Source: Bacteroidia bacterium (GTDB lineage: Bacteria; Bacteroidota; Bacteroidia; Bacteroidales; BM523). Taken from it: 34,627 nucleotides of DNA. The stretch covers positions 1 through 34,627 of the forward strand of contig JACQWN010000247.1 of assembly GCA_016209245.1 (NCBI GenBank), read 5' to 3'. A program made the translations under genes and the position numbers. Under the pieces are notes generated by a model. The model was not told the DNA's origin, did no database searches, and saw only the letters and a list, made by a program, of their open reading frames with translations. Each line of letters begins with the position of its first letter. Positions within the stretch are counted from its first letter, which is position 1. Positions 7,001 through 34,627 of this stretch are shown here, one piece after another.

Positions 7001-10000
7001 ACCAAAGATATGTATATGGAACGATACCACCCCCAACTGTTAGATCAATTGTTCCTGTCGCTCCTCCGCAAACAGAATTTGTGAAGGTTGATGATAATGT
7101 TATTGATGCAGGTTCATTAATAACCTGGCTATCTGTTGCGGTACATCCATTAAAATCGGTAACCGTAATATTATATGTTCCGTCACACAAATTGTTTGCA
7201 GTCGGAGTTGTTTGCAAATTACTCCATATATAGCTGTAAGGCGCGGTACCTCCGCTTGGAGTAACAGTGGCCGTACCGTTACATGTACCATTGCAGGTTG
7301 CATCAGTTCCCGTCGTTATAAGAGACAGAACCGCCGGCTGCGTAATTGTAACTGAAGTAGTTGCGGTACAGGAATTGGCATCTGTAACCGTCACATAATA
7401 CAAGCCGGCAGGTAGAGACGCAATGCCTTGCGTCTGTGCTCCTGTGCTCCATAGATATGAATAACCAGGTGTTCCGCCCGAAGGATTTACAGTGGCTGAA
7501 CCTGTCGAATTTCCATTACACAGCACATTGGTTTGTGACGTTGTAAGGCTTATTCCCGATGCAGGTTGAGTAATATTGATTGAAACAACATTAGAACATG
7601 CATTTGCATCGGTTATAGTAACAGAATAAGTTCCAGCAGTAATATTAGATAAATCTTGAGAAGTTGCACCGCCCGGGTTCCATAAATAAGTATAAGGAGG
7701 AATTCCTCCGGTTACGGTTAAATCGGTTGCGCCTGTTGCTGCACCATAACATAATACGTTTGTTCCTGTAAGAGTAGTATTCATTTTTGGAGGTTGAGTT
7801 ATAGTAATACATGTAGAAGCGGTACAGGAATTAGCATCAGTAACGGTAACACAGTATGTTCCTTCCGGTAATCCTGAAATATCCTGAGTTGTAACGCCTG
7901 TATTCCATAAATATGAATATGGTGAAGCGCCTCCTGAAACCGTCAAATCGGCGGATCCGTCGCTTAGCCCCTGACAGGTTACGTTTGTGGCGATTATGTT
8001 TGAAGATAATACTGTCGGTTGAGTGATAGTAACAGAAGCTGTTGTTGTAACAGAATTATTATCCGTAACAGTAACTGTATATGTTCCTGCAGTCAAACCG
8101 GAAATATCCTGTGAAGTGGCAGAATTTGACCACAAATATGTGTATGGCGCCACACCGCCGGAAACGCTTAAATCGGCAATACCATTATTACCTCCGTTGC
8201 AGGTAACATTTGTTCCGATAATAGTTGCTGTTAATGGTGAGCCGGGTTGTGTAATTGTTATGCATGCCGAAGTTGTGCATCCGTTAGCATCGGTAACAGT
8301 AACGCAATATGTTCCTGCGGGAATATTTGTTAAATCCTGAGATATCGCTCCCGTATTCCACAGATAAGTATATCCAGGTGTACCGCCCGAAGGTGTTAAA
8401 TTGGCAACTCCATCTGAACCGCCGAAAAATGTAACATTTGTGCCAACAATACTTGCTGAGACTGCAGAAGCCGGTTGTGTAACAGTTACGGAACCTGTCG
8501 AAGTACATCCGTTTGCATCGAATACTGTCACAAAATATGTACCTGCAGGGAGATTAGTTATTGTTTGAGATATTGCCCCTGTACTCCAGGAATAAGTATA
8601 ACCCGGTGTACCGCCTGCAGGATTTGCTGTTGCAGAGCCGGTTGAACCTCCGAAACAAGCAACATTTGTTTGTGTTATTGAAACTGATACGGCGGAAGCA
8701 GGTTGAGTAATAGTTACTGACGCTGTACCTGTGCAACCACCGGCATCGGTAACTGTTACAGTATAAGTTCCTGCCGGGCGATTCGTGATTGTTTGAGTAT
8801 TCGCTCCTGTATTCCATAAATATGAATAACCTGGTGTTCCACCTGAAGGATTTGCAGTTGCAGAACCATTTGAACCTCCAAAACAAGTAACATTTGTTTG
8901 TGTAGTAGTAACCGTTACTCCTGACGGAGGTTGAGTAATAGTAACGGAAGCCGTAGCGGTGCAACCACCGGCATCGGTAACTGTTACAGTATAAGTTCCT
9001 GCCGGACGATTAGTTATAGTTTGAGTATTTGCTCCTGTATTCCATAAATATGAATAACCGGGTGTACCGCCTGCAGGATTTGCAGTTGCAGAGCCGTTTG
9101 AACCACCGAAACAACTAACACTTGTTTGTGAAGCAGTAACCGATACTCCTGATGGAGGTTGAGTTATAGTAGCAGAAGCTGTAGCAGTACAGCCATTGGC
9201 ATCGGTAACTGTTACAGTATAGGTTCCTGCGGGGCGATTGGTGATAGTTTGAGTATTAGCCCCGGTATTCCATGAATATGAATATCCGCCTGCACCGCCT
9301 GAAGGATTTGCTGTAGCCGAGCCGGTTGATTGTCCGAAGCAGGCTACATTAGTCGTTGTTGTTGTAACCGATACTGCTGAGCCAGGTTGGGTAATTGTGG
9401 CTGAGACGGTAGCAGTACATCCTTTTGAATCGGTAATTGTAACAGTATATGTTCCTGCCGGGCGGTTAGAAAGATCTTGTGTAACAGCACCCGTGTTCCA
9501 TAAATAGGAATAGCCGGGAGTTCCTCCGGAAGGCGTTAAATCTATTGCACCTGTTGATTGCCCGAAGCACTGCACATTAGTAATGAGGGTTGAGCCGGAC
9601 AGGGCGGCGGCGGGCTGAGTGATTGTTGTCGAGGAGGTCGCTATACACCCATTAGCATCGGTAACGGTAACATTATAGGTGCCTGCAGGGCGATTGGAGA
9701 TATCCTGGGTAGATGCAGTGAACCCAAATGGGCCTGTCCACCAATAGCTATAGCCAGGAGTTCCGCCGGAAGGGGTCATATCAATTGCACCCGTGGATTG
9801 GCCGAAGCAATTTACATTAGTAATAACGGTAAAGGAAATAGAAGGAGAGCCAAAATTTCCAACTGTTCCGCTTGCTACTGAATTACAGCCGCTTCCATCA
9901 AATACTGTTACGGTATAAGTTCCCGGGGTTAAATTGTTTATACATTGAGTATTCTGTCCTGTATTCCATGAAAAAGTGTAAGGAGGCAATCCTGCATTAA

Positions 10001-20802: not shown

Positions 20803-20816
20803 TTTTCAAATAATCG

Positions 20817-22995
20817 TTAACCCAACTTGCAAAAGTTGGGTTGTAATTTCCTAAGAATCAATTTTATATGTTTTAAAAATTTCATTTTCGGGTAACACGG
20901 ATTTTTTTATAAACGGACGATATTTATACTTTAATGCGTCATAAATTTGACGCACTTCATTTTTAGGCAAACTGCATTTCCGTATGACTATCCGCTTCCC
21001 ATCTTCCTTATTAATCGTTGACGTTACCATCTTATGGGAATTCATTATACGGACAATATTCTTCCAATCATGGTGAATGTCCTTGTTCTTTAGTTGATGA
21101 CGTATTGTATTTATAACCTGGTAGGCTAAAATACCCAAATGTAAATGAGCAATGGTAGATATGTCTCCTTGATGAAACACAGGACGCAATTTTAAATCTG
21201 TTTTAAGAAACCTGAAAACAGCCTCAATCTGGCGAATCGTATTATATATATTCCAAAAACGCGTTTCGTCAATGTTCTTTAATGTTGTTCTTAAAAAATA
21301 AATTCCTTCGTTTTTCTCCGTATCAGCTATCTTTTTTCGCCATATTATTTGTGCTGCTATTCCTTTTCCATCAGACTTTACTTCAACGTGATAAAACCGG
21401 TTTGCCGATTGGTATTTTTGTTTAAGCCTTCCTATTCGTTCCCATACTTTTTCAAGTTTTTTTGTGCCTCCTTTCTTTTCGAGACCTTGTTTTATTTGTT
21501 CTAAACCGATTTCAAAATTGCTTGTATAGTATTCTTTCATTGATAGTTCCTTGCATGCCTTCTGCTCGCTTCTTACATATAAAAAATTATCGCCGCTATC
21601 TGTATCTTCAAATTTGTATAAATCTATCGGATGCTTTCGTTTATCATATATTTGAACCTTAGTTTGCAGTTCTACATTGTAGTCCTTCAGTTTCTCCCGG
21701 CTTACGCACAAATAATCATATCCTGCTCCCCTTAACATCTTAAGATTATCGCTCGTTGCTATACCTGCGTCTATTACTATCAAAGGTTTTCGTTCATTAA
21801 ACGATGTCTTTTCCGATAACTCTTCTATCGTCTTTTGCAATGTCTTGCAATCACTCATATTCCCTGAAAATATCCGGCTGTGTTTTACAAATCCTTCTAC
21901 ATTTACTACCAATGCCAATACAACTAGTTTCGCATCATTACGTTTTTCTTTACTCTTCCCAAACCAGCATATCTCGCTCAATACTTTCCGCCCTTCAAAA
22001 TATGTGTTAGTCAAATCGTACAAAATAATCTTATCGTCCAAGTCAAATAACTCATTTGTTCTTATACTCAAACCATTTTCAACCGCTTCTTTATCATTGT
22101 AAAATTTCAAGGCGCTTTTATATAAATGATACCTGCTTATGTCGTCAGAACCTAATGAAAACAATTCATTTACTCCAGAATTCAATTTTATCCATCGTTC
22201 TGTCTTGTGTTCAGACGCAGGAAATACGCACCGGCTTATTAAATGTATCAACCCTCGTTTTATCTGGCTTTCATCCCAGTCTTGCTCTATCAGTATTTTC
22301 CGTAATTCTAACTGCTCAATTGCCTGATAGCACATCCATTCCGCCCCGATTTCTCTGCCGTCTTCATGTTCCAGGCTATTTAAATCTACACTCTGTATGT
22401 CTGGCTTTTCTGTTCTTTTCTCTGTGGATGGAATAATCTGTCGTGGCTTGTCTTTCAAGTTCTTATCAATAAGTTGTCTGTAAAAATTCTGTGCGAGTTT
22501 CTCTATAGTTTCATTGCCATGTAATGGTATTGTAAACAAACAGCTATTGACTAATTCTTCTATTCGATCCGCCAATGCTTTTCTTTCGTTTTCGTTTGAT
22601 AATTCATCTAATGTGCCTAAAGTCAAAATGTTACGATGCCGAGGATTATTGCCTATCCTATAACTCTGGCATAATCGGTAATAGGTATACTGCTTACCGG
22701 TTCTTTTATCTGTCTTTGGTATAGATTTTATAAACATGGGGCAATTATAGTCAATGCAATTTATTTCGCCAAATTAATTCGGGGACTACAAAATGGATGA
22801 TTTTTGTTATATATTTGTATATGAGATGGTTAAAATTTTTAAAATAGGAAAAAATACTAAAATGGTTATGTGTTGATTATCAGCTATATAGAAGATTGTG
22901 TTAATATCTTTAATCTAATAATCAGATATTTGTAAAATTTATTAACAATCGTGTTTTTCAATATTGTTCGGGGCATTTTTTCCAAGTTGGGTTAA
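20817..22995 (-). mobile_element. IS1634-family (IS4-like DDE) insertion sequence, about 2179 bp
   Basis: 18-bp terminal inverted repeats match at 17 of 18 positions: TTAACCCAACTTGCAAAA at 20817-20834 and TTTTCCAAGTTGGGTTAA at 22978-22995. They enclose a single transposase ORF. The outermost TTAA is palindromic, so it could instead be a 4-bp target duplication flanking CCCAACTTG... ends. I found no other target-site duplication. Confidence 0.7.
20851..22737 (-). CDS. IS1634-family DDE transposase (628 aa)
   Basis: The N-terminus MFIKSIPKTDKRTGKQYTYYRLCQSYRIGNNPRHRNILTLG is characteristic of IS1634-group transposases. DDE-type motifs are present: LYDLTNTYFEG, LIVIDAGIAT and YNTIRQIEAVFRFLKTDLKLRP (the Y..R..IE..F..LK signature). 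Confidence 0.85.
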   Translation of the reverse strand: MFIKSIPKTDKRTGKQYTYYRLCQSYRIGNNPRHRNILTLGTLDELSNENERKALADRIEELVNSCLFTIPLHGNETIEKLAQNFYRQLIDKNLKDKPRQIIPSTEKRTEKPDIQSVDLNSLEHEDGREIGAEWMCYQAIEQLELRKILIEQDWDESQIKRGLIHLISRCVFPASEHKTERWIKLNSGVNELFSLGSDDISRYHLYKSALKFYNDKEAVENGLSIRTNELFDLDDKIILYDLTNTYFEGRKVLSEICWFGKSKEKRNDAKLVVLALVVNVEGFVKHSRIFSGNMSDCKTLQKTIEELSEKTSFNERKPLIVIDAGIATSDNLKMLRGAGYDYLCVSREKLKDYNVELQTKVQIYDKRKHPIDLYKFEDTDSGDNFLYVRSEQKACKELSMKEYYTSNFEIGLEQIKQGLEKKGGTKKLEKVWERIGRLKQKYQSANRFYHVEVKSDGKGIAAQIIWRKKIADTEKNEGIYFLRTTLKNIDETRFWNIYNTIRQIEAVFRFLKTDLKLRPVFHQGDISTIAHLHLGILAYQVINTIRHQLKNKDIHHDWKNIVRIMNSHKMVTSTINKEDGKRIVIRKCSLPKNEVRQIYDALKYKYRPFIKKSVLPENEIFKTYKIDS

Positions 22996-23043
22996 TCTCG
23001 AATCCTAAATTTTAAATTCCGAAACATTCCCAACACGCAGACG

Positions 23044-23101: not shown

Positions 23102-26100
23102 CTATCTTATAATCGTTATCGTCCCCGCATACGGCTCACGGTCGTTATGCAAATCAATTATAAACATATATGGCCCGATTGGCAGTTGACGGCCGTTGAA
23201 TGTTCCATTCCATCTTTTTCCATCATATTCACTGCCCGAGCCGTCAAAATCAAATACTTTATCACCCCAGCGGTTGAATATCTGAATTGTTATCTGGCTG
23301 TAAAGCTCAATATTAAGCAGTTCCCAATCATCATTATAATTATCGTCATTAGGCGTAAAGGCGGTCGGAATAGTTAAGCATTCCAGTTGAATATACCCGA
23401 TCTCGATTGTGTCAACCATCGGGCAATCGTGTTCATCGGTTACGGTTACATAATATGTGCCGATAACAAGCCCTGTCGCCGGATTTGTAATTTGTCTGTT
23501 GTTCCAGTTATAATAATATTGACCGGTTCCGCCGGTGACAATCAGATGAATTTCTCCGTCGTGATGGTCGCGGCAGGATGTTTTAATAATGCTGTCTCTT
23601 ATTACAATTAACTGCGGTTGGTAAACAGTGACAAACGTTGTTGTATCGCAGCCCTTGGAATCGCTTATTGTCAGAAAATATGTTCCAATTGTAAGATTGA
23701 CAGCCGTTGTGGAATGCTGCCCGTTTGACCATGTAAAATAATAAGGCGGCGTACCTCCGATTCCTGATGTCATTACAAAACCATCGCTTCCGTTGAAACA
23801 ACTTGCATCAACAATAGTATCAATCTGAATCTGTAACGATTTTGCAGGTTCGGTAATAGGTTGCGATGCATTGATGATACAGCCAAATGAATCGGTAACC
23901 GCTACCGAATAGTACCCTGGACTTAAGCCGGTGATAACCGAATCAGTACCTAATGGTAATGAATCGTTCCACAAGTAGTGATACGGCGCGTCGCCATAAA
24001 ACTGCGTTCCACCATCAATATGTACAGTTACTGTACCATTATTATTACCTCTGCATGTAACATTTGTAAATTCGATGTAATTTACCGTTAATGGAGATGG
24101 AGAAGGAGCAATAGTAATTAGAGTATCGGTTCCAATACAATTAAGAGCATCAAATACAGTAACTGAATAATTACCGGCAATTAATCCTGTAGCTGTAGAA
24201 TCGGTTTGTCCATCGGACCAAATATAAGTAAATGGAGTAAAGCCGGCTTGGGGTGTTACGGTCGCAGTAGCAGTCCAACCAGAGCATTTAATTGGTGTTG
24301 TGGTAATGGTTAATGGAATATAGCCGGTCAGGTTAATCGAAAAGTTGAAAATTTCGATACACCCGTTAGCATCGGTTACAGCTATATTATGAGCGCCAAA
24401 AGCTAGTCCCCAAATTGAATCAGCATTAGCTGAGTCGTTTGACCATAGCCATGTATAAGGTGGTAATCCTCCGGCAATATTTGGCAAAACAGCCGTACCA
24501 TTTGTATTGCCGCAGCTTGCCGGCGTAGTATTTATTCCATTGGGCAAGCTTATCGGGTCGGGTTGGGATACTATTACTGAGTCAATCAATTTACATTTAT
24601 AATAATCGGTAACAGTAACTTCATATTCACCTGCCATTAAAGTGTCAATATCCTGTGTAACCCATCCATAATTCCAGAAATATGTATAAAAAGGTGTTCC
24701 GCCTGTAACGGTTGCGTCAATAGCTCCATCTGTACCGCCATAACAACTGACATTTGTAACATTAAAGTTGATTGCCAAAGAATCTGTAGGTTGAGAAATA
24801 ATAATAGAATCACAAATAGCCTGACAATTATTTACATCGGTGACAGTTGCAGTATATACTCCCGCAGTGACATTCATAATATCCTGAGAAGTATGTCCTG
24901 AATTCCATAAATAAGCATAAGGAATAGTACCTCCGAGTACTGATAAATTAATAGCTCCTGTCGAATCTCCGTAACATAAAGCATCGGTTACTACTATTGA
25001 GGCATATAATGAATCGGGTTGGGAAAGAGATATTTCAGCAGTATCGGCGCAATTATTAATATCGGTAACTGTAAGCGAATAAGTGCCAACCTGTAAATTG
25101 GTAATAACAGGTGTTGTGTCGTTGGTTGACCATAAATAGCTAAATGGGAGATTGCCGCCTCCTACATCTGCAATGATTGTTCCGTTATTCATTTCATAAC
25201 ATGACAAGTCGGTTTTAATAAGTGAAATGTGCGGTTTGCTGTAAATCGTCATCGAAGTATCCAACATACAATTATTCGCATCGGTTATTGTAACAATATA
25301 AAGAGCAGGCCCGATACTGTCAAGGTCTTCGGTTGTTTGCCCATAATTCCATACGTAATTATAATAAGGGACAGAATCGTTGGGTGTGCCGCCGGTTACT
25401 GTCAAATCAATAAAGGCATCATATTCTAGATAGCAATTAACTGAAGGTAAAACAATGGAAACAGACAGAGATAAATCGGGTTCGGTGATGGTGTCGCTTG
25501 CCGTAATTGTACAACCATTGGCATCGGTTACTGTGAGCATATATATACCTGCGGTTACATTAAAAATTGTTGAAGCTGTCTGACTATTATTCCATAGATA
25601 AGAATAAGCCGGTCTTCCGCCCTGAACAAAAGAAATAGCAATTGAACCCGTTGATTCGCCATGACATTTCACATCTTCTACTAAGAGTTCGCCGAGCATT
25701 AAGCTCGTTGGTTCTATTACTGTTACCGAATCAATATTAATGCAACCATTTGCATCGGTTACTGTAACGGTATAAGTTCCACCATGCATATTTGATAAAG
25801 CATTTGTAGTGTCGGGAGGGGAAGTATTCCAGAGATATGAAAATGGTGCAACTCCTCCAAGCACAACTAAATTTATATATCCTGTGCTGTCGCCGTTACA
25901 TAAAATTTCATTCGCCGATAATATGGCAGTAATAACGGGTGGTTGAGTAACAGGAACAGATGCTATTGTGATACAATAATTTGTATCAACAACCGTAACA
26001 GAATAATTACCGGCAACGATATTGTTCAAATCTTCAGTTGTTTGTCCATAATTCCAATAATATGCAAAAGGAGAAGTCCCCCCTGTTATGGTCAGGTCAA

Positions 26101-28459
26101 TAGCCCCTGTAGGATTTCCATAACATAAAATATTCGTTCCTGACAGATTTGCGGTTAATGCAGATATAGGTTGGTTGACAACAGCAGAATCAATAACTGA
26201 ACAATTATTTGCATCTGTTACAGTAATATAATATGTACCTGCGGGTATATTGTTTAAATCTTGACTATTATATATGTTTGACCAATTATAAATAAAAGGC
26301 ATAGTACCTCCGCTTACCGATAAATCAATCATACCTGTTGTACCACCATAACATCCTACATCAGTAGTAGAAATGGAATCAATAAGCAGTTGTGGGGGTG
26401 CAATAAGGTTTGTTGAAGCTTCTGCTATACAATTATTTGCATCGGTAACCGTTACCGAATATAAACCTGCGGTAATACCAAATAAATCTTCAGTAACTGA
26501 ACTGTTGTTCCAAAGATATGAATAAGGTAGTGTTCCGCCGTTTACTACTAAATTGGCAATCCCGTCTGAACCTCCGTTACAATCAGGATTAGTTTTGACA
26601 ATATAAGCTGATAACAGAGCGGCCGGCTGAGTTATAGTAAATGATGAAGATGAAGTGCAGAGATTAATATCTGTAACTGTTACACTATAAGTACCAGCTT
26701 GGACTGTATCTAAATCTTCATTATTATCTCCATTCGACCATTGGTAAGCATATAAAGGGGTTCCGCCTGATGTAGTAATATTTATGGCTCCTGAAGGGGA
26801 ATTAAAGCAATCAACATTTGTGATAATTGAAGTGATGCTAATTCCGGCAGCAGGTTCAGAAATATTTACTGCAGCAATGGTAGTGCAACCTTTTGAATCG
26901 GTTACAGTAACACTGTATATACCTTGCGGTACACCATATAAATCTGGGTTAAGATTACCATTAGACCAATTATAAAAATAAGGTATTGTGCCGCCCGTAA
27001 CAGTCAAACCGGCGGAACCGTTACTTCCTCCCTGACAACTTACGTTTGTGGCTATAATGCTTGTGACTAAGGGCTGCGGTTCGTTAACAGTAACGGAAGC
27101 AGTTGCTGTAACACTATTGGCATCGGTAACAGTGACAAAATAATTTCCGGCAAATAAATTTATCAAATCTTCGATTGTATCTCCGGTTGACCATAGATAA
27201 TTGTATGGAGCAACGCCACCGGATACCATAAGATTTGCAGCACCTGAGCTTTCTCCGTTACAACTTACATCTGTACCGGCTATAAGAACAGTCAAGAAAG
27301 ATGCCGGTTGCGTAATTGTTATACATTGACTGATTGTGCATAAATTAGCGTCAGTAACGGTAACACAATATGTTCCTGCTGTTAAATTAATGATATCTTC
27401 AGTAGTTTCGCCGTTTGACCAGTTATATGTATAGCCCGGTGTACCGCCGGAGACGGTCAGGTCGGCCGAGCCGTCACTGCCTCCAAAAGCGCTGACATTG
27501 CTTCCGGTAATACTTGCCGTTAATGATGAAGCAGGTTGGTTTATTGTAACAGATACTGTATCAGTACAACCCGATGCATCAGTAATTGTAACGCTGTATA
27601 TTCCGGCAGTCACGTTCGATATATCCTGATTTACAGAACTATTCGACCACAAATAAGAATAAGGCGTTATTCCGCCTGCAACGGTCAAATCGGCAAGCCC
27701 ATCATTTCCTCCGAAACAATTTACATCGGTGCTTGTTATAGATGCAGTAATATCGGCAGGCTCCGTAATAGTAACCGATGCGGTAGCTGCAACAAGATTG
27801 GAATCAGTAACAGTTACAGTATATATGCCGGCGGGTAAATTAAAAATATCTTCTGTAGTCTCACCATTTGACCAAATAATTGTATATGGTGCGATACCGC
27901 CGGAAACTGATAAATCAGCCGCGCCGGAACTATCATTATAACATGTAAGGTTTGTTCCGATGATTACAGGAATTAAGGCACCGGGTTCATATATTGTCAC
28001 TGAAGCAACCGTTGTGCAACCATTATTATCCGTGACTGTAACAGTATATGTTCCCTGAGCAAGACTATCAATATCTTCTGTAGTTTCGCCATTTGACCAT
28101 AGATAAGTATATGGGGCAGTTCCTCCGGTCACAGTCAAATCGGCAGAACCATCATCAGCTCCGAAAGCGCTAAGATTTGTACCTGTTATACTTGCAGATA
28201 GAGGAGCGCCCGGTTCATTAATAATAATAAAAGTAGAATCAACACAACCATTGGCATCAGTAATTATCACAGTGTAAATACCGGCACTCAGGCTATATAA
28301 ATCCTGATCGGTTGACCCATCAGACCATAAATAAGTATAAACAGGCGTTCCGCCTGCAACGGATAAATCAGCGCTACCGTCATTACCTCCGAAACAATTT
28401 ACATCGTTTACTGCAACCGAAGCGGTTAATAAAGCAGGTTCGGTAATAGTAACCGAATC
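23102..28459 (-). CDS. C-terminal segment of giant gene 2 (SprB-repeat adhesin with T9SS type B CTD); reading frame open from 28459 and separated from the N-terminal segment by a frameshift
   Basis: The ORF track lists 23102..28270, but that 'M' is an internal GTG (Val in ...GIYTVIITDANGC...). Hand translation shows the frame stays open upstream to 28459 (DSVTITEPALLTASVAVNDVNCFGGNDGSADLSVAGGTPVYTYLWSDGSTDQDLYSLSAGIYTV...), with TAA at 28462-28460. It contains 22 SprB-type units. Its last 93 aa are identical to the gene 1 type B CTD at 83 of 93 positions by my count. Confidence 0.85.
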   Translation of the reverse strand, partial: DSVTITEPALLTASVAVNDVNCFGGNDGSADLSVAGGTPVYTYLWSDGSTDQDLYSLSAGIYTVIITDANGCVDSTFIIINEPGAPLSASITGTNLSAFGADDGSADLTVTGGTAPYTYLWSNGETTEDIDSLAQGTYTVTVTDNNGCTTVASVTIYEPGALIPVIIGTNLTCYNDSSGAADLSVSGGIAPYTIIWSNGETTEDIFNLPAGIYTVTVTDSNLVAATASVTITEPADITASITSTDVNCFGGNDGLADLTVAGGITPYSYLWSNSSVNQDISNVTAGIYSVTITDASGCTDTVSVTINQPASSLTASITGSNVSAFGGSDGSADLTVSGGTPGYTYNWSNGETTEDIINLTAGTYCVTVTDANLCTISQCITITQPASFLTVLIAGTDVSCNGESSGAANLMVSGGVAPYNYLWSTGDTIEDLINLFAGNYFVTVTDANSVTATASVTVNEPQPLVTSIIATNVSCQGGSNGSAGLTVTGGTIPYFYNWSNGNLNPDLYGVPQGIYSVTVTDSKGCTTIAAVNISEPAAGISITSIITNVDCFNSPSGAINITTSGGTPLYAYQWSNGDNNEDLDTVQAGTYSVTVTDINLCTSSSSFTITQPAALLSAYIVKTNPDCNGGSDGIANLVVNGGTLPYSYLWNNSSVTEDLFGITAGLYSVTVTDANNCIAEASTNLIAPPQLLIDSISTTDVGCYGGTTGMIDLSVSGGTMPFIYNWSNIYNSQDLNNIPAGTYYITVTDANNCSVIDSAVVNQPISALTANLSGTNILCYGNPTGAIDLTITGGTSPFAYYWNYGQTTEDLNNIVAGNYSVTVVDTNYCITIASVPVTQPPVITAILSANEILCNGDSTGYINLVVLGGVAPFSYLWNTSPPDTTNALSNMHGGTYTVTVTDANGCINIDSVTVIEPTSLMLGELLVEDVKCHGESTGSIAISFVQGGRPAYSYLWNNSQTASTIFNVTAGIYMLTVTDANGCTITASDTITEPDLSLSVSIVLPSVNCYLEYDAFIDLTVTGGTPNDSVPYYNYVWNYGQTTEDLDSIGPALYIVTITDANNCMLDTSMTIYSKPHISLIKTDLSCYEMNNGTIIADVGGGNLPFSYLWSTNDTTPVITNLQVGTYSLTVTDINNCADTAEISLSQPDSLYASIVVTDALCYGDSTGAINLSVLGGTIPYAYLWNSGHTSQDIMNVTAGVYTATVTDVNNCQAICDSIIISQPTDSLAINFNVTNVSCYGGTDGAIDATVTGGTPFYTYFWNYGWVTQDIDTLMAGEYEVTVTDYYKCKLIDSVIVSQPDPISLPNGINTTPASCGNTNGTAVLPNIAGGLPPYTWLWSNDSANADSIWGLAFGAHNIAVTDANGCIEIFNFSINLTGYIPLTITTTPIKCSGWTATATVTPQAGFTPFTYIWSDGQTDSTATGLIAGNYSVTVFDALNCIGTDTLITIAPSPSPLTVNYIEFTNVTCRGNNNGTVTVHIDGGTQFYGDAPYHYLWNDSLPLGTDSVITGLSPGYYSVAVTDSFGCIINASQPITEPAKSLQIQIDTIVDASCFNGSDGFVMTSGIGGTPPYYFTWSNGQHSTTAVNLTIGTYFLTISDSKGCDTTTFVTVYQPQLIVIRDSIIKTSCRDHHDGEIHLIVTGGTGQYYYNWNNRQITNPATGLVIGTYYVTVTDEHDCPMVDTIEIGYIQLECLTIPTAFTPNDDNYNDDWELLNIELYSQITIQIFNRWGDKVFDFDGSGSEYDGKRWNGTFNGRQLPIGPYMFIIDLHNDREPYAGTITIIR

Positions 28460-30140
28460 TTACACCACCGGAAACAGTTAAATCTGCAGCGCCGGTTGAA
28501 TCTCCATTACAATCAACATTCGTTCCTGCAATAAATGCGATTATAACACCGGGTTCATTGATTACTACTGTTGCAATAACAGTACATCCGTTGAAATCAG
28601 TTACCGTAACGGTATAAATTCCTCCTGAAAGACTGTCTAAATCTTCGATAGTATCGCCGTTTGACCACATAAATGAATAGGGAATTGTTCCGCCCGAAAC
28701 CGTTAAGCCGGCAGACCCATCACCGGCGCCTGCTGCCGTAACATCAGCGCCAATAATGCTTGCTGATAAAGAATCAGAAGGTTCGGTAATAGTAACTGAA
28801 GCAGTTGTAGTACATAAATTAGCATCGGTTATAGTTACATCATATATTCCGGCGGTCAGGTTATATAAATTCTGATCGGTTGAAGCGTCAGACCAAAAAT
28901 AAGTATAAGCAGGCGTTCCGCCAGCAACGGATAAATCAGCGCTGCCGTCATTTCCCCCGAAACAATTTACATCGTTTACTGCAACCGAAGCGGTTAATAA
29001 AGCAGGTTCGGTAATAGTAACCGAAGCGGTAACAGATATCGAATTAGCATCGGTAACTGTTACGGTGTAAACACCGGCAGGTAAACCCGATATATCTTCA
29101 GTTGTTGCCCCATTCGACCATAAATAAGTGTAAGGAATTACACCGCCGGAAACAGTTAAATCTGCAGCACCGGTTGAATCTCCATTACAATCAATATTCG
29201 TTCCTGTAATAAATGCGGTTAAAACACCGGGTTCATTGATTACTACTGTTGCAGTAACAGTACATCCGTTGAAATCAGTTACCGTAACGGTGTAAGTTCC
29301 TCCTGATAAGCTATCTAAATCTTCGGTCGTTTCCCCGTTTGACCATATAAATGAATAGGGAATTGTTCCGCCCAAAACTGTCAAGTCGGCAGAACCATCA
29401 TCGGCTCCTGCTGCCGTAACATCAGTGCCAATAATGCTTGCGGATAATGAATCAGAAGGTTCGGAAACAGTAACCGAAGCAGTTGTAGTACACAAATTAG
29501 CATCGGTTATAGTTACATCATATATTCCGGCGGTCAGGCTAGATAAATCCTGATCGGTTGAAGTGTCAGACCATAAATAAGCATAAGCAGGTGTCCCGCC
29601 GGCAACGGATAAATCAGCGCTGCCGTCATTTCCTCCGAAACAATTTACATCGTTCACTGCAACCGAAGCGGTCAATAAAGCAGATTCGGTAATAGTAACC
29701 GAAGCGATAACAGATATCAAATTAGCATCGGTAACTGTTACGGTGTAAACACCGGCAGGCAAATTAGATATATCTTCAGTTGCCGCCCCATTCGACCATA
29801 AATAAGTGTAAGGAATTACACCGCCCGAAACAGTTAAATCTGCAACGCCGGTTGAATCTCCATTACAATTGATATTAGTGCCTGTAATAAATGCAATAAT
29901 AACACCCGGTTCATTGATAGTGACAGTTGCGGTAACAGTACATCCGTTGAAATCAGTTACCGTAACAGTGTAACTTCCTCCTGATAAGCTATCTAAATCC
30001 TCAGTTGTTTCTCCGTTTGACCATATAAATGAATAGGGAATTGTTCCGCCCGAAACCGTTAAGTCGGCAGAACCATCATCAGCTCCTGCTGCTGTAACAT
30101 CAGCGCCAATAATACTAGCGGATAATGGATTAGAAGGTTC
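27539..30140 (-). repeat. Higher-order tandem array: four copies of a 678-bp (226-aa, three SprB units) module, the third copy carrying a 110-bp deletion
   Basis: Module starts (the Glu codon of EPS/GxxLSASI.G) lie at 30140, 29462, 28784 and 28216, and the next related module starts at 27538. The spacings are 678, 678, 568 and 678 bp. Copies 1-3 are nearly identical by eye and copy 4 is more diverged. Related modules also lie at about 30828-31505 and 26860-27538. Confidence 0.9.
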
Positions 30141-33100
30141 AGTGATAGTAGCTGAAGCAGTTGTAGTACATAAATTAGCATCGGTAACTGTTAGATTATA
30201 GATTCCGGCAGTCAGTCCGTTTATATTTTGTGTAATATATCCGCCTGGCATCCATGAATATATATATGACGCTGTGCCACCGCTTGTGTTAACAGTAGCG
30301 CTGCCGTCATTTCCCCCGAAGCAACTGACATTAACCTGAGAGATAGTAGCAGATAATGCTGAGGCAGGTTGCGTTATTGTAACAGAAGCTATTATAATGC
30401 AACCATTAGAATCGGTAACTGTACACGAATACGTGCCTGCTGTTAAGCTGTTGATAGTTTGAGTTGTAAAGCCTCCGGTCCATGAATATGAGTATGGTAA
30501 AGTTCCACCGCTTGGAGTAGCGGTAGCGCTACCATCATTTCCTCCATTACAATTGACATTGGTTTGTGAGGTTGAAACCGATAAAACAGAAGCGGGTTCA
30601 GTGACGGTAGCAGAGATAATAGCAGTACAATTATTTGCATCGGTTATTGTAACGGTATAAGTACCGGCAAAAAGACCCGAAATATCTTCAGTAATATCTC
30701 CATTCGACCATGAATAAGAATAAGGTGATGTACCACCAGATGGGATTAAATCAATAGCTCCTGTTTTTTCTCCGAAACATAGTATATTTGTTATAGTTGT
30801 GGTTGCAGATAATGCTGCTGCGGGCTGGTTAATAGAACCGGTTGCTGAGACCGTGCAATTATTGAAATCAGTTACGGTAACGCTGTATGTACCGGCTGTC
30901 AGATTAGTTATTGTTTGAGTTAAAGGACCGCTTGACCATAAATAAGTATAGCCAGGAGTACCACCGCTTGGATTAGCAGTAGCGCTGCCGTCATTTCCTC
31001 CAAAACAATTTACATCTGTTCCTGCAATAGTTGCTGTTAATGCAGAAGGTTGAGCAATTGTAACCGTTGCAGTAATAGTGATTAAATTATCATCGGTAAC
31101 AGTTACAGTATAAATGTCGGCAGGCAAATCAGAAATATCTTCAGTTGTTTCCCCATTCGACCATAAATAAGTGTAAGGAATTACACCGCCGGAAACAGTT
31201 AAATTTGCAGCGCCTGTTGAATCTCCATTACAATCAATATTCGTTCCGGCAATAGATGCGATTAAAACACCGGGTTCATTGATTACTACTGTTGCAGTAA
31301 CAGTACATCCGTTGAAATCAGTTACTGTAACTGTGTAAGTTCCTCCTGATAAGCTATCTAAATCTTCGGTCGTTTCTCCGTTTGACCATATATATAAATA
31401 AGGGATTGTTCCGTCTAAAACCGTTAAGTTGGCAGAACCATCATCGGCGCCTGCTGCTGTAACATCAGTGCCAAAAATGCTTGCCGATAAAGCTGCAGCA
31501 GGCTCATTAATAATAACTGAGGCAGTTGTAATACATCCGTTATCATCAGTAATAGTAACACCATAAGTTCCGGCTGTCAGATTTGTTATATCCTGATTAA
31601 AAGAGCCTGTTGACCATTGATAGGTATAAGGAGAAACTCCGCCACTAACGGATAAATCAGCCGTACCATCATTGCCTCCATTACAATTAACATCCGTTCC
31701 TGTAATGTTTGCCGTCAAGACAGTTGGTTCCGTAATATTAACTGATGCAGTTACCGTACAGGAATTTGCATCGGTAACTGTTACTACATAAGTATTAGCA
31801 GTTAAACCTGTAATATCTTCAGTTATTGCAAAATTTGACCATGAATAAGTATAAACTACGGTTCCTCCGCTTACAGTGAGGTCAGCAGCACCATTATTAC
31901 CTCCATTACAAAGAACATTAGTTCCGGAAATAGTGGCAGTCAAAGCTGCCGCAGGCTGTGTTATTGTTATAGAAGCTGTAGTTGTACACGAATTAATATC
32001 TGTAACTGTTACAGAGTAAACTCCTGAAGCAAGACCGGATAAAGGCTCGGTTGTCGCTCCTGTATTCCAGAGAATTGAATATGCAGGAGTTCCGCCATTA
32101 ATAGTTAAATCGGCTGTTCCGGTTGTTTCCCCGAAACAGTTAACATTTGTGCCGCTGATAGTTGCAATTAATGCCAGTGGCTCGTTAATGGTTACCGAAG
32201 CGGTTGCAGTACAACTGTTTACATCAGTAACAGTCACAGAATATAATCCTGCGGTTAGATTTGTAATGTTTTGGTTTACTGAGCTATTGCTCCATAAATA
32301 TGTATAAGGAAGCGTACCGCCTGTAACAGTTAAATCGGCTGAACCGGATGAACCACCGTTACATAGCACATCTGAACCGACGATTGAAGCGTTTAAAACA
32401 GCAGGTTGAGTTATATTCGCCGAAGCATCATCGGTACAGCCCTGGCTGTCGGTGACTGTAACAGTATAGGGTCCTGCGGGCAGTCCGGAATAAGTAACAG
32501 TTCCATCACCTGTATATCCATCAGGAGACCAATCATAAAAGTAAATTGGTGTTCCTCCCCCTGCCGTGACGGTGGCTGAGCCTGTCGAAGCCCCGTTACA
32601 ACCAACATTAGTGACCGAGGTTATTGAAGCATTTAGCACAGGGGGCTGTGTGATTGTCACGGAAGCGGAGGCAATACAATTATTGTTATCATTTACAGTT
32701 ACGGAATATGCTCCGGCAATAAGACCTGATATAGTATTAGTCAATAATGGGCTATTCCATGTAGTGCTTCCGTTTGACCATATATAATCATAAGGAGAAG
32801 CGCCTCCTGCAACGGTAACAGTAGCAGAACCATTACTCAATCCATTGCAGCTCACATTTGTCGAAGATGAAATATTAGCTGTCGGGGCAGCGGCATCAAC
32901 AACATTAACAACAGCAGTAGCAGAACAAGAATTATCATCGGTAACAGTAACTGTATATGCACCTGCAGAAACATTAGTGATTGTATTTGATAAAAAAGTT
33001 GTATCATAAGTATTACTGCCGTTAGACCATTCATAATCGTAATTTGGCGTGCCGCCTGCAACATTTACTGTAGCACTTCCATCGCTGGCGCTACAAGTAG

Positions 33101-34627
33101 AATTTACACTGCTTGTAGTTAAAACAATAGCTGCCGGCTCATTAATAGTTTGAGCACCCGTAATTACACATCCGTTTACGTCGGTTACTGTAACGCTGTA
33201 TGTACCATCGCACAAGTTATTAGCGGTCTGAGTAATTTGAAAACCGGTATTTCCATCCCAGTTATAAGTATATGGAATTGAACCGCCTGAAGGGGTAGCT
33301 GTTGCCGTACCATTGCAGGTTCCATTACAAAGGGGATCGGCACCAGACATTGTTAATGATAACACTACAGGTTGGGTGATAGTTGCGGCAGAGGTAATTG
33401 TACATGAATTGGCATCGGTAACTGTAACAGTATAAGTTCCTGCGGGAATATTAATAATATCCTGATTTGTCTGACTTGATGACCACAGATATGAATAAGC
33501 AGGAGTGCCGCCGCTAACGGTTAAATCGGCAGAACCATTAGCGCCTCCGTTACACGATACATTACTTGACGATATTGATGCAGATAAACCGCCTGCAGGT
33601 TGTGTTATAATAACTGAAGCCACAATTGAACAGCTATTGTTATCAGTAACTGTAACCCAATATGTCCCTGCTGTCAGGTTATTGATAGTTTGTGTAATTA
33701 AACCTCCGGTCCATAAATAAGAATAACCCGGTGTGCCACCTGCCGGATTAGCAGTTGCGGAACCGGTAGCTTGTCCGAAGCAGGCAACGTTTGTTTGTGT
33801 TGTTGTTAGTGATAAGGCAGAGGCAGGTTGAGACACGGTAGCGGTGGCTGTTGTAGTACAATTATTTGCATCGGTGATTGTAACAGTATAAGTACCTGCA
33901 AAGAGACCGGAAATATCCTGGGTTGTAGCGCCGTTCGACCATGCGTAAGAATAGGCGGGTGTGCCTCCTGACGGAACCAGGTCAATCGCTCCATTTTTTT
34001 CTCCGAAACATGCAAGGTTTGTAACATTAGTTATTGCCGACAATGGTGCGGCCGGCTGAGTAATAGTAACAGATGCAGAAGCGGTATATCCGCTTGCATC
34101 GGCGACAGTAACCGTATATGTTCCTGCAGGTTGGTTTGAAATTGCCTGAGTTGTAGCGCTTGTGCTCCATGAATAGGAATATGCCGGTGTACCGCCTGCC
34201 GGATTCACTGTGGCGGAACCGGTAGAATTTCCAAAACAAGCTACATTAGTTTGAGAAGTTGTCAAAGTTAATCCTGATACAGGCTGAGTAATAGTTACAG
34301 TAGCAGTTGCCGTACAACCATTGGCATCGGTAACTGTTACCGTATATGTTCCTGCGGGGCGATTCGATATAGTTTGAGTAATAAAGCCGCCTGTCCATAA
34401 ATAGGAATATCCTGGTGTTCCGCCTGCCGGATTAGCTGTTGCTGAACCGGTAGAATTTCCAAAACAAGCTACATTAGTTTGTGTAGTTGTAACTGATACT
34501 GCTGAAGCAGGTTGGGTAATTGTAGCGGATGCAGTTGTGGTGCAACCATTAGCATCGGTAATTGTAACCGTATATGTACCTGCCGGGCGTCCTGAAATAT
34601 CTTGTGTTACAGCGCCGGTGCTCCATA
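28383..34627 (-). CDS. N-terminal and middle segment of giant gene 2 (SprB-repeat adhesin); the 5' end lies beyond the right window edge and the 3' end is terminated prematurely by the frameshift
   Basis: The track lists 28383..34265, but the 'M' at 34265 is an internal TTG (Leu). Hand translation shows the same frame is open up to the window edge (...WSTGAVTQDISGRPAGTYTVTITDANGC...TQPVSGLTLTTSQTNVACFG...). It contains about 27 SprB-type units. The last 25 codons (RFGYYYRTCFINRFGCSKRCKLFRR) are out-of-frame repeat sequence. Confidence 0.85.
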   Translation of the reverse strand, partial: WSTGAVTQDISGRPAGTYTVTITDANGCTTTASATITQPASAVSVTTTQTNVACFGNSTGSATANPAGGTPGYSYLWTGGFITQTISNRPAGTYTVTVTDANGCTATATVTITQPVSGLTLTTSQTNVACFGNSTGSATVNPAGGTPAYSYSWSTSATTQAISNQPAGTYTVTVADASGYTASASVTITQPAAPLSAITNVTNLACFGEKNGAIDLVPSGGTPAYSYAWSNGATTQDISGLFAGTYTVTITDANNCTTTATATVSQPASALSLTTTQTNVACFGQATGSATANPAGGTPGYSYLWTGGLITQTINNLTAGTYWVTVTDNNSCSIVASVIITQPAGGLSASISSSNVSCNGGANGSADLTVSGGTPAYSYLWSSSQTNQDIINIPAGTYTVTVTDANSCTITSAATITQPVVLSLTMSGADPLCNGTCNGTATATPSGGSIPYTYNWDGNTGFQITQTANNLCDGTYSVTVTDVNGCVITGAQTINEPAAIVLTTSSVNSTCSASDGSATVNVAGGTPNYDYEWSNGSNTYDTTFLSNTITNVSAGAYTVTVTDDNSCSATAVVNVVDAAAPTANISSSTNVSCNGLSNGSATVTVAGGASPYDYIWSNGSTTWNSPLLTNTISGLIAGAYSVTVNDNNNCIASASVTITQPPVLNASITSVTNVGCNGASTGSATVTAGGGTPIYFYDWSPDGYTGDGTVTYSGLPAGPYTVTVTDSQGCTDDASANITQPAVLNASIVGSDVLCNGGSSGSADLTVTGGTLPYTYLWSNSSVNQNITNLTAGLYSVTVTDVNSCTATASVTINEPLALIATISGTNVNCFGETTGTADLTINGGTPAYSILWNTGATTEPLSGLASGVYSVTVTDINSCTTTASITITQPAAALTATISGTNVLCNGGNNGAADLTVSGGTVVYTYSWSNFAITEDITGLTANTYVVTVTDANSCTVTASVNITEPTVLTANITGTDVNCNGGNDGTADLSVSGGVSPYTYQWSTGSFNQDITNLTAGTYGVTITDDNGCITTASVIINEPAAALSASIFGTDVTAAGADDGSANLTVLDGTIPYLYIWSNGETTEDLDSLSGGTYTVTVTDFNGCTVTATVVINEPGVLIASIAGTNIDCNGDSTGAANLTVSGGVIPYTYLWSNGETTEDISDLPADIYTVTVTDDNLITITATVTIAQPSALTATIAGTDVNCFGGNDGSATANPSGGTPGYTYLWSSGPLTQTITNLTAGTYSVTVTDFNNCTVSATGSINQPAAALSATTTITNILCFGEKTGAIDLIPSGGTSPYSYSWSNGDITEDISGLFAGTYTVTITDANNCTAIISATVTEPASVLSVSTSQTNVNCNGGNDGSATATPSGGTLPYSYSWTGGFTTQTINSLTAGTYSCTVTDSNGCIIIASVTITQPASALSATISQVNVSCFGGNDGSATVNTSGGTASYIYSWMPGGYITQNINGLTAGIYNLTVTDANLCTTTASATITEPSNPLSASIIGADVTAAGADDGSADLTVSGGTIPYSFIWSNGETTEDLDSLSGGSYTVTVTDFNGCTVTATVTINEPGVIIAFITGTNINCNGDSTGVADLTVSGGVIPYTYLWSNGAATEDISNLPAGVYTVTVTDANLISVIASVTITESALLTASVAVNDVNCFGGNDGSADLSVAGGTPAYAYLWSDTSTDQDLSSLTAGIYDVTITDANLCTTTASVTVSEPSDSLSASIIGTDVTAAGADDGSADLTVLGGTIPYSFIWSNGETTEDLDSLSGGTYTVTVTDFNGCTVTATVVINEPGVLTAFITGTNIDCNGDSTGAADLTVSGGVIPYTYLWSNGATTEDISGLPAGVYTVTVTDANSISVTASVTITEPALLTASVAVNDVNCFGGNDGSADLSVAGGTPAYTYFWSDASTDQNLYNLTAGIYDVTITDANLCTTTASVTITEPSDSLSASIIGADVTAAGAGDGSAGLTVSGGTIPYSFMWSNGDTIEDLDSLSGGIYTVTVTDFNGCTVIATVVINEPGVIIAFIAGTNVDCNGDSTGAADLTVSGGVRFGYYYRTCFINRFGCSKRCKLFRR

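Follow-up and report, generated by a model that had tools for sequence, protein, structure and literature searches.

The stretch of DNA analysed here, called the window below, is one whole contig of 34,627 bp (JACQWN010000247.1, our contig C628) from an assembly of 726 contigs and 5.67 Mb with 35% GC and an N50 of 9.8 kb, which looks like a fragmented short-read metagenome-assembled genome (MAG) of an uncultured Bacteroidota bacterium. Two giant genes lie on its minus strand, and the second contains the array of related three-repeat modules that is the subject of this report. Gene 1 (1065–11378) is intact and encodes 3437 amino acids (aa); its product carries 35 SprB repeats together with a CUB-like domain and a CHU_C domain, and its N-terminus (MKRLFYCFIAISLSGFIFSTRVFSQ) looks, by eye, like a signal peptide. 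Gene 2 (23102 to beyond 34627) is present as two open reading frames (ORFs) in different frames. The upstream ORF (28383–34625) is cut by the contig end, which falls within SprB repeats and leaves the 5′ end of the gene beyond the contig; it holds 26 SprB repeats, runs out of frame past …DLTVSGGV and stops at 28383. The downstream frame (23102–28459) is open from 28459, has its first start codon, a GTG, at 28270, and holds 20 SprB repeats followed by CHU_C. The repeats were counted with Pfam family PF13573, and CHU_C (PF13585), a type IX secretion system (T9SS) type B sorting domain, was matched with E values of 3e-19 in gene 1 and 1.4e-18 in the downstream ORF of gene 2. Genes 1 and 2 are paralogous giant surface fibres secreted by the T9SS and built as strings of approximately 76-aa immunoglobulin-like (Ig-like) SprB repeats. 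Our analysis indicates that the gene 2 array was probably formed by tandem expansion of a module and divergence under selection, with gene conversion and a late deletion afterwards.

Cutting the minus strand at 31505, 30140, 29462, 28784, 28216 and 27538 divides this part of gene 2 into in-frame modules of three approximately 76-aa units. A preliminary description of this DNA, made from its letters alone, had placed A-B(-C) modules at these six starts, and we found in-frame units at each. All six start with an E/QP-led unit in frame; five of the modules are 678 nt (226 aa) long and the 28784 module is 568 nt. The A unit is without the first cysteine (DVTAAGADDGSADLTV), the B unit has the first cysteine and lacks the second (…TDANSISVTA), and the C unit is an ordinary two-cysteine unit (DVNCFGGNDG). 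A C-type unit, C0 (31506–31733, minus strand), stands ahead of the first A-B pair. Homology of the duplicated segment starts at 31784, in the C-type unit before A1, and the repeated block can therefore be read equally well as C-A-B.

Following the minus strand in its own direction, copy 1 (A1-B1-C1′, 30828–31505) has A and B units 83–90% identical to those of the other young copies and ends in a hybrid C unit. It is followed by an interposed triple of ordinary two-cysteine units, X-Y-Z (30141–30827, 687 nt, minus strand), which lies outside the amplified family. Next come copy 2 (A2-B2-C2, 29463–30140), with a private divergent patch at module nt 210–271; copy 3 (A3-B3-C3, 28785–29462), which stands in the middle, resembles a consensus and has only 6 private sites; and copy 4 (A4-B4del-C4, 28217–28784), in which 110 nt of B4 are missing between 28460 and 28459 and the frame is shifted. 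The final 72 nt or so of C4 are 40% diverged and form the edge of the array. Two old copies complete the series, all of it on the minus strand: copy 5 (A5-B5-C5, 27539–28216), which is 64–68% identical to the young copies, and copy 6 (A6-B6-C6, 26861–27538), which is collinear with gene 1 in B6 and C6 (74% and 72.5% DNA identity) and whose A6 is nearest to gene 1 unit 8477. The A-B-C module of gene 1 lies at 4827–5504 on the same strand. Its A-B pair (5504–5052) had been described as the only one in that gene; the pair is present, but a second pair with the same cysteine pattern occurs at 8477–8025.

The six copies of gene 2 are of two age classes, four young (31505, 30140, 29462 and 28784) and two old (28216 and 27538). 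A blastn self-comparison gave matches at offsets of 678 (90.8% identity over 1080 nt), 1356 (86.8%), 1365 (81.6%) and 2043 (80.7% over 857 nt). The identity matrix gave 83–94% DNA identity among the A and B units of the young copies; for C units the value was 92% between 30140 and 29462, and 80–82% between 28784 and those two. Old copies were 60–68% identical to young copies, the gene 1 module 62–63% identical to young copies, and the interposed triple (30827–30141) 54–59% identical to the other modules. At the protein level, the 226-aa modules were 90% (30140 versus 29462) and 76% (31505 versus 29462) identical, with individual units at 78–92%. A maximum-likelihood tree of the A and B units of all eight A-B pairs placed the four young copies in one clade (support 100/99), within which 31505 was sister to the contiguous three (88/96). 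In this tree the remaining pairs, four in number, branched deep without resolution, and the grouping of 27538 with gene 1 pair 5504 was weakly supported (66/95). Elsewhere in the 5.67-Mb assembly, the module DNA matched gene 1 only (73.5% over 272 nt). The proposal that the module had been amplified to five or six copies in gene 2 therefore needs narrowing: an amplification specific to gene 2 did take place and accounts for four young copies, but two of the six, at 60–68% identity, are old. Likewise, a dot-plot and identity matrix had been suggested as a check, and in them the young copies are closer to each other than to the gene 1 module, while the old two are no closer to the young copies than that module is, which for these two is the outcome that the description itself had named as refuting its claim.

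Synonymous divergence (Ks) and its ratio to non-synonymous divergence (Ka/Ks) place these events in time. Nei-Gojobori estimates among the young copies gave Ks of 0.07–0.56 and Ka/Ks mostly of 0.13–0.35. The pair 31505/30140 shows Ks of 0.43–0.56 in every segment, which we use to date the first young duplication; for the contiguous three, Ks is about 0.1–0.4. Between gene 1 and gene 2, Ks was 0.95 over the collinear 1391 codons and 0.80 over the best-conserved 914 codons, with Ka/Ks of about 0.2, and between old and young modules Ks was saturated. Since the Ks of the young copies (0.07–0.56) is below that of the two genes (about 0.8–0.95), the young amplification postdates the split of the genes, yet it is not very recent. 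The preliminary description had spoken of very recent unequal crossing-over and/or conversion, which overstates the case: the young copies differ by 9–24% in DNA, with baseline Ks of 0.2–0.5 and Ka/Ks of about 0.2. These values indicate that the young copies have long been held under purifying selection, and therefore that the lengthened protein was functional and in use. Only the approximately 200-nt conversion tracts described below are young, and the amplification itself is a fairly old, two-tier expansion.

The preliminary description also took adhesin length to be evolving quickly in this lineage, and the age of the copies bears on the possibility that the array is unstable at present, with copy number differing among close strains as in the length variation of Periscope-type proteins. 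Exact runs of 40–69 nt could suffice for RecA-dependent exchange, given the minimal processing segment length of that pathway. Short-read assembly would hide still younger copies, and there is an out-of-register deletion within the array. Moreover, contiguous copies reach 90% aa identity over 226 aa, above the level of 80% over >50 residues used to screen for Periscope proteins (PMC8201768). However, strongest length variation accompanies highest repeat identity in that study (PMC8201768), and the baseline Ks of 0.2–0.5 with Ka/Ks of about 0.2 implies that the copies have individually persisted for a long time. We consider present-day instability of the array to be rather doubtful, and regard the history of gene 2 as being at odds with constant rapid churn.

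Sequence exchange between non-adjacent copies, which had also been put forward, was borne out. A 62-nt run reported to occur at both 31264–31325 and 29221–29282, 2043 bp apart, is present exactly, and the full match is 64 nt (29219–29282 and 31262–31325, offset 2043). That diagonal also holds exact runs of 54 and 44 nt; in addition, 28389–28457 repeats 28957–29025 exactly, over 69 nt. The 64-nt run lies within a conversion tract that spans module nt 121–330, at 31176–31385 in copy 1 and at 29133–29342 in copy 3 (both minus strand). Over these approximately 210 nt the non-adjacent pair 31505/29462 has a Ks of 0.12, against 0.46 and 0.61 in the flanks, a dip that is absent from the control pair 31505/30140. 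Sliding windows at nt 181–270, which span a normally variable inter-unit linker, put 31505, 29462 and 28784 at 93–100% mutual identity and 30140 at 75–88% to them; from nt 330 on, 29462 has its nearest relative in 30140. When polymorphic sites were permuted in a GENECONV-like test, 31505/29462 gave P=0.0006. Finally, copy 29462 has 6 private sites, versus 28, 30 and 78 in the other young copies, and Tajima relative-rate tests with 31505 as outgroup assigned it fewer changes in both comparisons (9 versus 29, P=0.0012; 7 versus 19, P=0.019). Tandem copies within one gene should change at equal rates, and repeated exchange between the middle copy and its relatives is therefore probable. Three lines of evidence, namely the mosaic Ks, the permutation test (P=0.0006) and the relative-rate tests (P=0.001), thus agree in supporting gene conversion between copies.

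An improbable alternative, in our judgement, is that the copies were duplicated and diverged without any conversion, uneven constraint plus chance being responsible for the uneven identity. SprB repeat motifs are strongly conserved, the tests reach P of about 0.001–0.04 only and no external donors were found, all of which such a history would accommodate. Constraint is a poor explanation of the tract itself, though: the identical stretch of 31505 and 29462 takes in synonymous sites as well as the normally variable inter-unit linker, it coincides with the most diverged part of 30140, and Ks itself falls fourfold within it. Unequal counts of private changes among tandem copies are likewise not expected from constraint alone. 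GC-biased conversion in the repeat arrays was considered separately and rejected. The GC content at third codon positions of the units is 0.26–0.31, like that of neighbouring genes, and declines a little as paralogue identity rises (rho −0.24); the higher GC of the repeat genes comes from codon positions 1 and 2.

Several points weigh against tandem expansion with later conversion as the history of the array. The P values for conversion are moderate (about 0.001 per test) and several tests were run, and the conversion tracts overlap partly conserved motifs. The divergent patches in copy 2 and copy 4 had no match elsewhere in the assembly that could represent a donor. A max-chi-square breakpoint scan mostly finds the edges of the duplicated segments rather than internal tracts, and for this reason conversion was called from segment-wise Ks, the run test and the relative-rate tests. 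With exact runs of at most 69 nt and identities of 84–91%, recombination between copies should be infrequent at present. In addition, a consensus-like copy such as 29462 is also what a collapsed assembly would produce, and the contig comes from a short-read MAG in 726 contigs (N50 9.8 kb) and ends inside the gene 2 repeats.

In copy 4, 110 nt of B4 are absent between 28460 and 28459, and this puts the two ORFs of gene 2 in different frames. The junction 28460|28459 shows no microhomology, and the exact 69-nt repeat begins 2 nt downstream of it. Past the deletion the frame is open for 1785 codons, and because so long a frame persists, the deletion would have to be very recent if real. It may be real, polymorphic or artefactual. 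In unit 34286 of the same gene (at approximately 34080–34095, …TVADASGYTAS) the cysteine is replaced by tyrosine, for which a single G-to-A change suffices; this may hint at relaxed constraint on gene 2 or be a sequencing error.

We also weighed whether the internal copies could be an artefact, a short-read metagenome assembler having collapsed, expanded or chimerised the array or strain variants of it, in which case no single genome would have this number of copies, the consensus-like 29462 or, perhaps, the 110-nt deletion. The MAG is fragmented, this contig ends in SprB repeats and many others start within arrays, and copy 29462 is nearly without private sites, like a consensus. The exact runs of 64 and 69 nt are longer than common k-mer sizes. 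The 69-mer begins 2 nt past the junction; for k below 70 the stretch 28458–29025 forms a 568-nt de Bruijn loop, and an assembly path that skipped this loop would yield an in-frame gene one module shorter. Nevertheless, the copies are 9–24% different, far above strain variation, and copy-specific variants flank every inter-copy junction within one read length. There are only nine exact repeats of at least 40 nt in the whole window, so that nearly all k-mers of at least 31 nt are unique to one copy and every copy must rest on reads of its own. A path swap at the 64-mer leaves a circular remnant, so that only one order of copies is available to an assembly in which no segment is used twice or left out. 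At 28460|28459, no k-mer in common could account for a false join. On balance, we think it very unlikely that the internal copies arose during assembly.

Tandem expansion in the genome remains our preferred account, with the copy number of gene 2 as a lower bound. No long repeat above 91% identity was seen anywhere in the assembly, and many contigs begin inside repeat arrays; copies still younger and more alike would either have been collapsed by the assembler or have interrupted the contig. Short-read MAGs therefore display only copies that are already about 10% diverged, and recent length variation is understated by them.

Comparison with gene 1 locates the expansion from both sides. From the 3′ side, gene 1 5231–2547 (the B unit onward) is collinear with gene 2 27262–24578 (B6 onward) at 77.8% identity. 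From the 5′ side, units 6893 of gene 1 and 32897 of gene 2 are reciprocal-best anchors, and in each gene five units separate the anchor from an A unit (5504 and 31505, respectively). The A unit of gene 1 is 70–71% identical in aa sequence to A1–A3 and 63% to A6. Copy 27538 had been proposed as the one collinear with gene 1; this is correct when the genes are aligned from the 3′ side, but from the 5′ anchors it is 31505 that matches the position of the gene 1 A unit. Relative to gene 1, gene 2 has about 4.08 kb extra between the left edges of A1 and A6, equal to 18 units or roughly 1360 aa, and 12 of the 18 extra units belong to the four young modules. Judged from this alignment, the insertion looks like that expected for the tandem expansion of a once-single module. 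An Ig-like domain is about 4 nm long, and at this length 18 units would add several tens of nanometres of stalk.

From these alignments and divergences, we infer a recombination mechanism, an order of events and a lengthening of the fibre by the extra modules. A three-repeat segment (678 bp, 226 aa) would have been tandemly duplicated by unequal homologous recombination between similar units three apart. More rounds would have led to three contiguous copies (30140, 29462 and 28784) and a fourth, 31505, which is now 1365 bp upstream, past the inserted X-Y-Z triple, with the two much older A-B-C modules (28216 and 27538) bordering the array on its 3′ side. After amplification the copies presumably diverged under purifying selection with the longer protein in use. 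Later non-reciprocal exchange would have re-homogenised patches of approximately 200 nt, most clearly between 31505 and 29462, leaving the middle copy 29462 consensus-like. The 110-nt deletion in copy 4 that broke the frame would be the latest step.

The 5′ edge of the array has features of its own. The C unit of the 31505 copy, C1′ (30828–31055), matches the other C units over its first approximately 118 nt only (DVNCFGGNDG type), and its remainder is of the N-terminal 'SATANPSGGTPGY' type. This hybrid structure is a sign of a recombination junction. Unit X (30827–30603) and the unit at 34058 have 77% DNA identity, and together the hybrid and this match look as if left behind by a second segmental duplication that drew on the 5′ part of gene 2. 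Near the other edge, A6 (27314–27538) and the cysteine-less gene 1 unit 8477 (8253–8477) have an extra cysteine pair in common (GTYCVTV…C.T..C) and are mutual best matches at 68% aa identity; the neighbours of A6 match the 5279/5054 units of gene 1. This likeness may reflect an old exchange between the paralogues. Gene 1 also contains a tandem array of single 228-bp units at 8415–9533 (4.9 copies, units 83–91% aa identical), and therefore both paralogues expand, with different periods. Further multi-unit tandem repeats were seen in the MAG at C469:1-2789 (942-nt period, 86.6% over 1850 nt) and C304:272-1770 (774-nt period, 90.9%).

The module has an Ig-like fold. An AlphaFold2 model of C2-A3-B3-C3, computed with an alignment of 55 four-unit windows from both genes, had a mean pLDDT of 95.6 and consisted of four beta domains of six DSSP strands each. 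The best Foldseek matches in the PDB were three fragments of the GhpA stem (E 2.5e-10 to 4e-9, best TMq 0.56), followed by titin, Dscam and RTX-adhesin Ig arrays; no match of the module was found in the PDB at the sequence level. In the window, 8 of 84 scored units are without the first cysteine (C1), and each stands directly before a unit without the second (C2), B4 excluded. Six of these eight A-B pairs are in gene 2 and two in gene 1 (8477–8025 and 5504–5052). The second-cysteine region of B4 in the 28784 pair is inside the 110-nt deletion, and so seven of the eight pairs can be read directly. All but one of the 68 other scored units have both cysteines, the exception being 34286 (C to Y). 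We compared this pattern with 3687 units from 118 other, unrelated SprB-repeat proteins, 97% of which have both cysteines. There, a unit lacking C1 followed by one lacking C2 occurred 10 times and the reverse order once, first units of an array tended to be without C2 (25 versus 1), and last units without C1 (33 versus 1).

This pattern fits a disulfide from C1 of one domain to C2 of the next (C1(i)–C2(i+1)), joining the bottom A-B loop of the former to the top F-G loop of the latter. Two other pairings, a disulfide between C2 of A and C1 of B and an intradomain C1–C2 disulfide, were poorer fits both to the strand order of the model and to the first- and last-unit statistics. Disulfides are reported to link neighbouring Ig-like domains in the cryo-electron microscopy structure of GhpA, for example Cys2988–Cys3140 (bioRxiv 10.1101/2024.01.29.577165). 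In the model, the linker at A/B is 3 residues long, versus 6–7 at the other junctions. From the cysteine pattern and the predicted structure, the A/B junction would be without the staple. We tentatively suggest, with low confidence, that A/B is an unstapled joint in a fibre in which an inter-domain disulfide is present at almost every other junction, and that amplification adds such joints at a spacing of three domains (six in gene 2, two in gene 1), tuning flexibility or extensibility besides lengthening the stalk. The mechanics of SprB-type fibres matter for gliding and adhesion and, if confirmed, the pattern would offer a simple sequence rule for telling stapled from unstapled joints in them.

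Between gene 1 and gene 2 lie small ORFs without a Pfam match, three genes for T9SS cargo with a type A C-terminal domain (one of them an S8 protease) and a DDE transposase gene. The latter, of 628 aa, belongs to an insertion sequence of approximately 2181 bp at about 20815–22996 that lies 106 nt past the gene 2 stop. This element is present at 100% identity in the Logan assemblies of SRR12113402, SRR12113405 and SRR12113406. It is multi-copy or mobile, because its flank in one Logan assembly runs on into the sequence of another contig of this MAG (C251). A tblastn search with a single A unit matched dozens of contigs, which shows that SprB-repeat genes are very numerous in the genome. Genome-wide, the PorP/SprF-like family PF11751 had 29 matches, some directly beside giant SprB genes (contigs C303 and C244), and no cognate PorP/SprF-like partner was found beside gene 1 or gene 2 on their contig. 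A 46%-identical paralogue of the CUB-like N-terminal region of gene 1 occurs at C307:625-1662, on a contig of 2.8 kb. It may represent the 5′ end that gene 2 lacks here, or that of another family member, and no sequence overlap joining C307 to the end of the window was found.

Searches for relatives of the array returned distant proteins. Among 30 relatives searched, no close one was found, the best match being 54% identical in aa and from a different genus. In a collection of 5.8 billion proteins, the best non-self matches were 50% identical to the long-ORF query and 59% to the single-module query. An exact 28-mer had no match in metagenome contigs and genome contigs, and a protein-guided metagenome scan with the C-terminal 432 aa of gene 2 had none either.

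Genes 1 and 2 share PF13573, PF13585 and giant size with SprB of Flavobacterium johnsoniae and with the SprB-repeat/CHU_C proteins annotated with a 'gliding motility-associated C-terminal domain' (PMC9143113, PMC12635249). They differ from SprB in that database identity is at most about 50% and that the contig has no PorP/SprF-like partner, and a role in gliding is not implied. The module is best matched in structure by GhpA of Aureispira (PDB 9flw/9flp/9fly), which is also a T9SS cargo of Ig-like repeats. GhpA has about 52 such repeats with disulfides between adjacent domains and forms a heptameric rigid stem (bioRxiv 10.1101/2024.01.29.577165). The structural alignment is at about 20% identity, however, and in contrast to the heptameric GhpA there is no sign of oligomerisation here.

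The closest parallel for the expansion itself is with the Periscope proteins (Whelan et al. 2021, PMC8201768), which include SasG/Aap, Rib, the SHIRT domains of Sgo_0707, Esp and CdrA. Like gene 2, they encode surface-anchored fibres with a stalk of tandem structured domains, the length of which is altered by intragenic recombination. The screen that defined them asked for tandem repeats of >50 residues with at least 80% protein identity (PMC8201768), and the gene 2 repeats exceed 50 residues and reach 80% protein identity or more. On the other hand, the Periscope repeat is a single domain, whereas that of gene 2 is a block of three different Ig-like domains. Their DNA repeats are near 100% identical, while those of gene 2 are 84–91% identical with longest exact runs of 69, 64 and 54 nt. 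They are LPXTG-anchored or type I secretion system (T1SS) proteins, and gene 2 is a type B T9SS cargo of Bacteroidota. The defining trait of Periscope proteins is variation in length from strain to strain, and gene 2 is known here from one assembly. Overall, the gene 2 array is a Periscope-like repeat expansion in a T9SS-secreted fibre of the SprB family, a real but ordinary route to length change in which the cysteine-staple reading of the A-B pair is the sole mildly new element. It cleanly illustrates the growth of giant Bacteroidota fibres through tandem copying of a multi-domain segment, long retention under purifying selection and occasional conversion.

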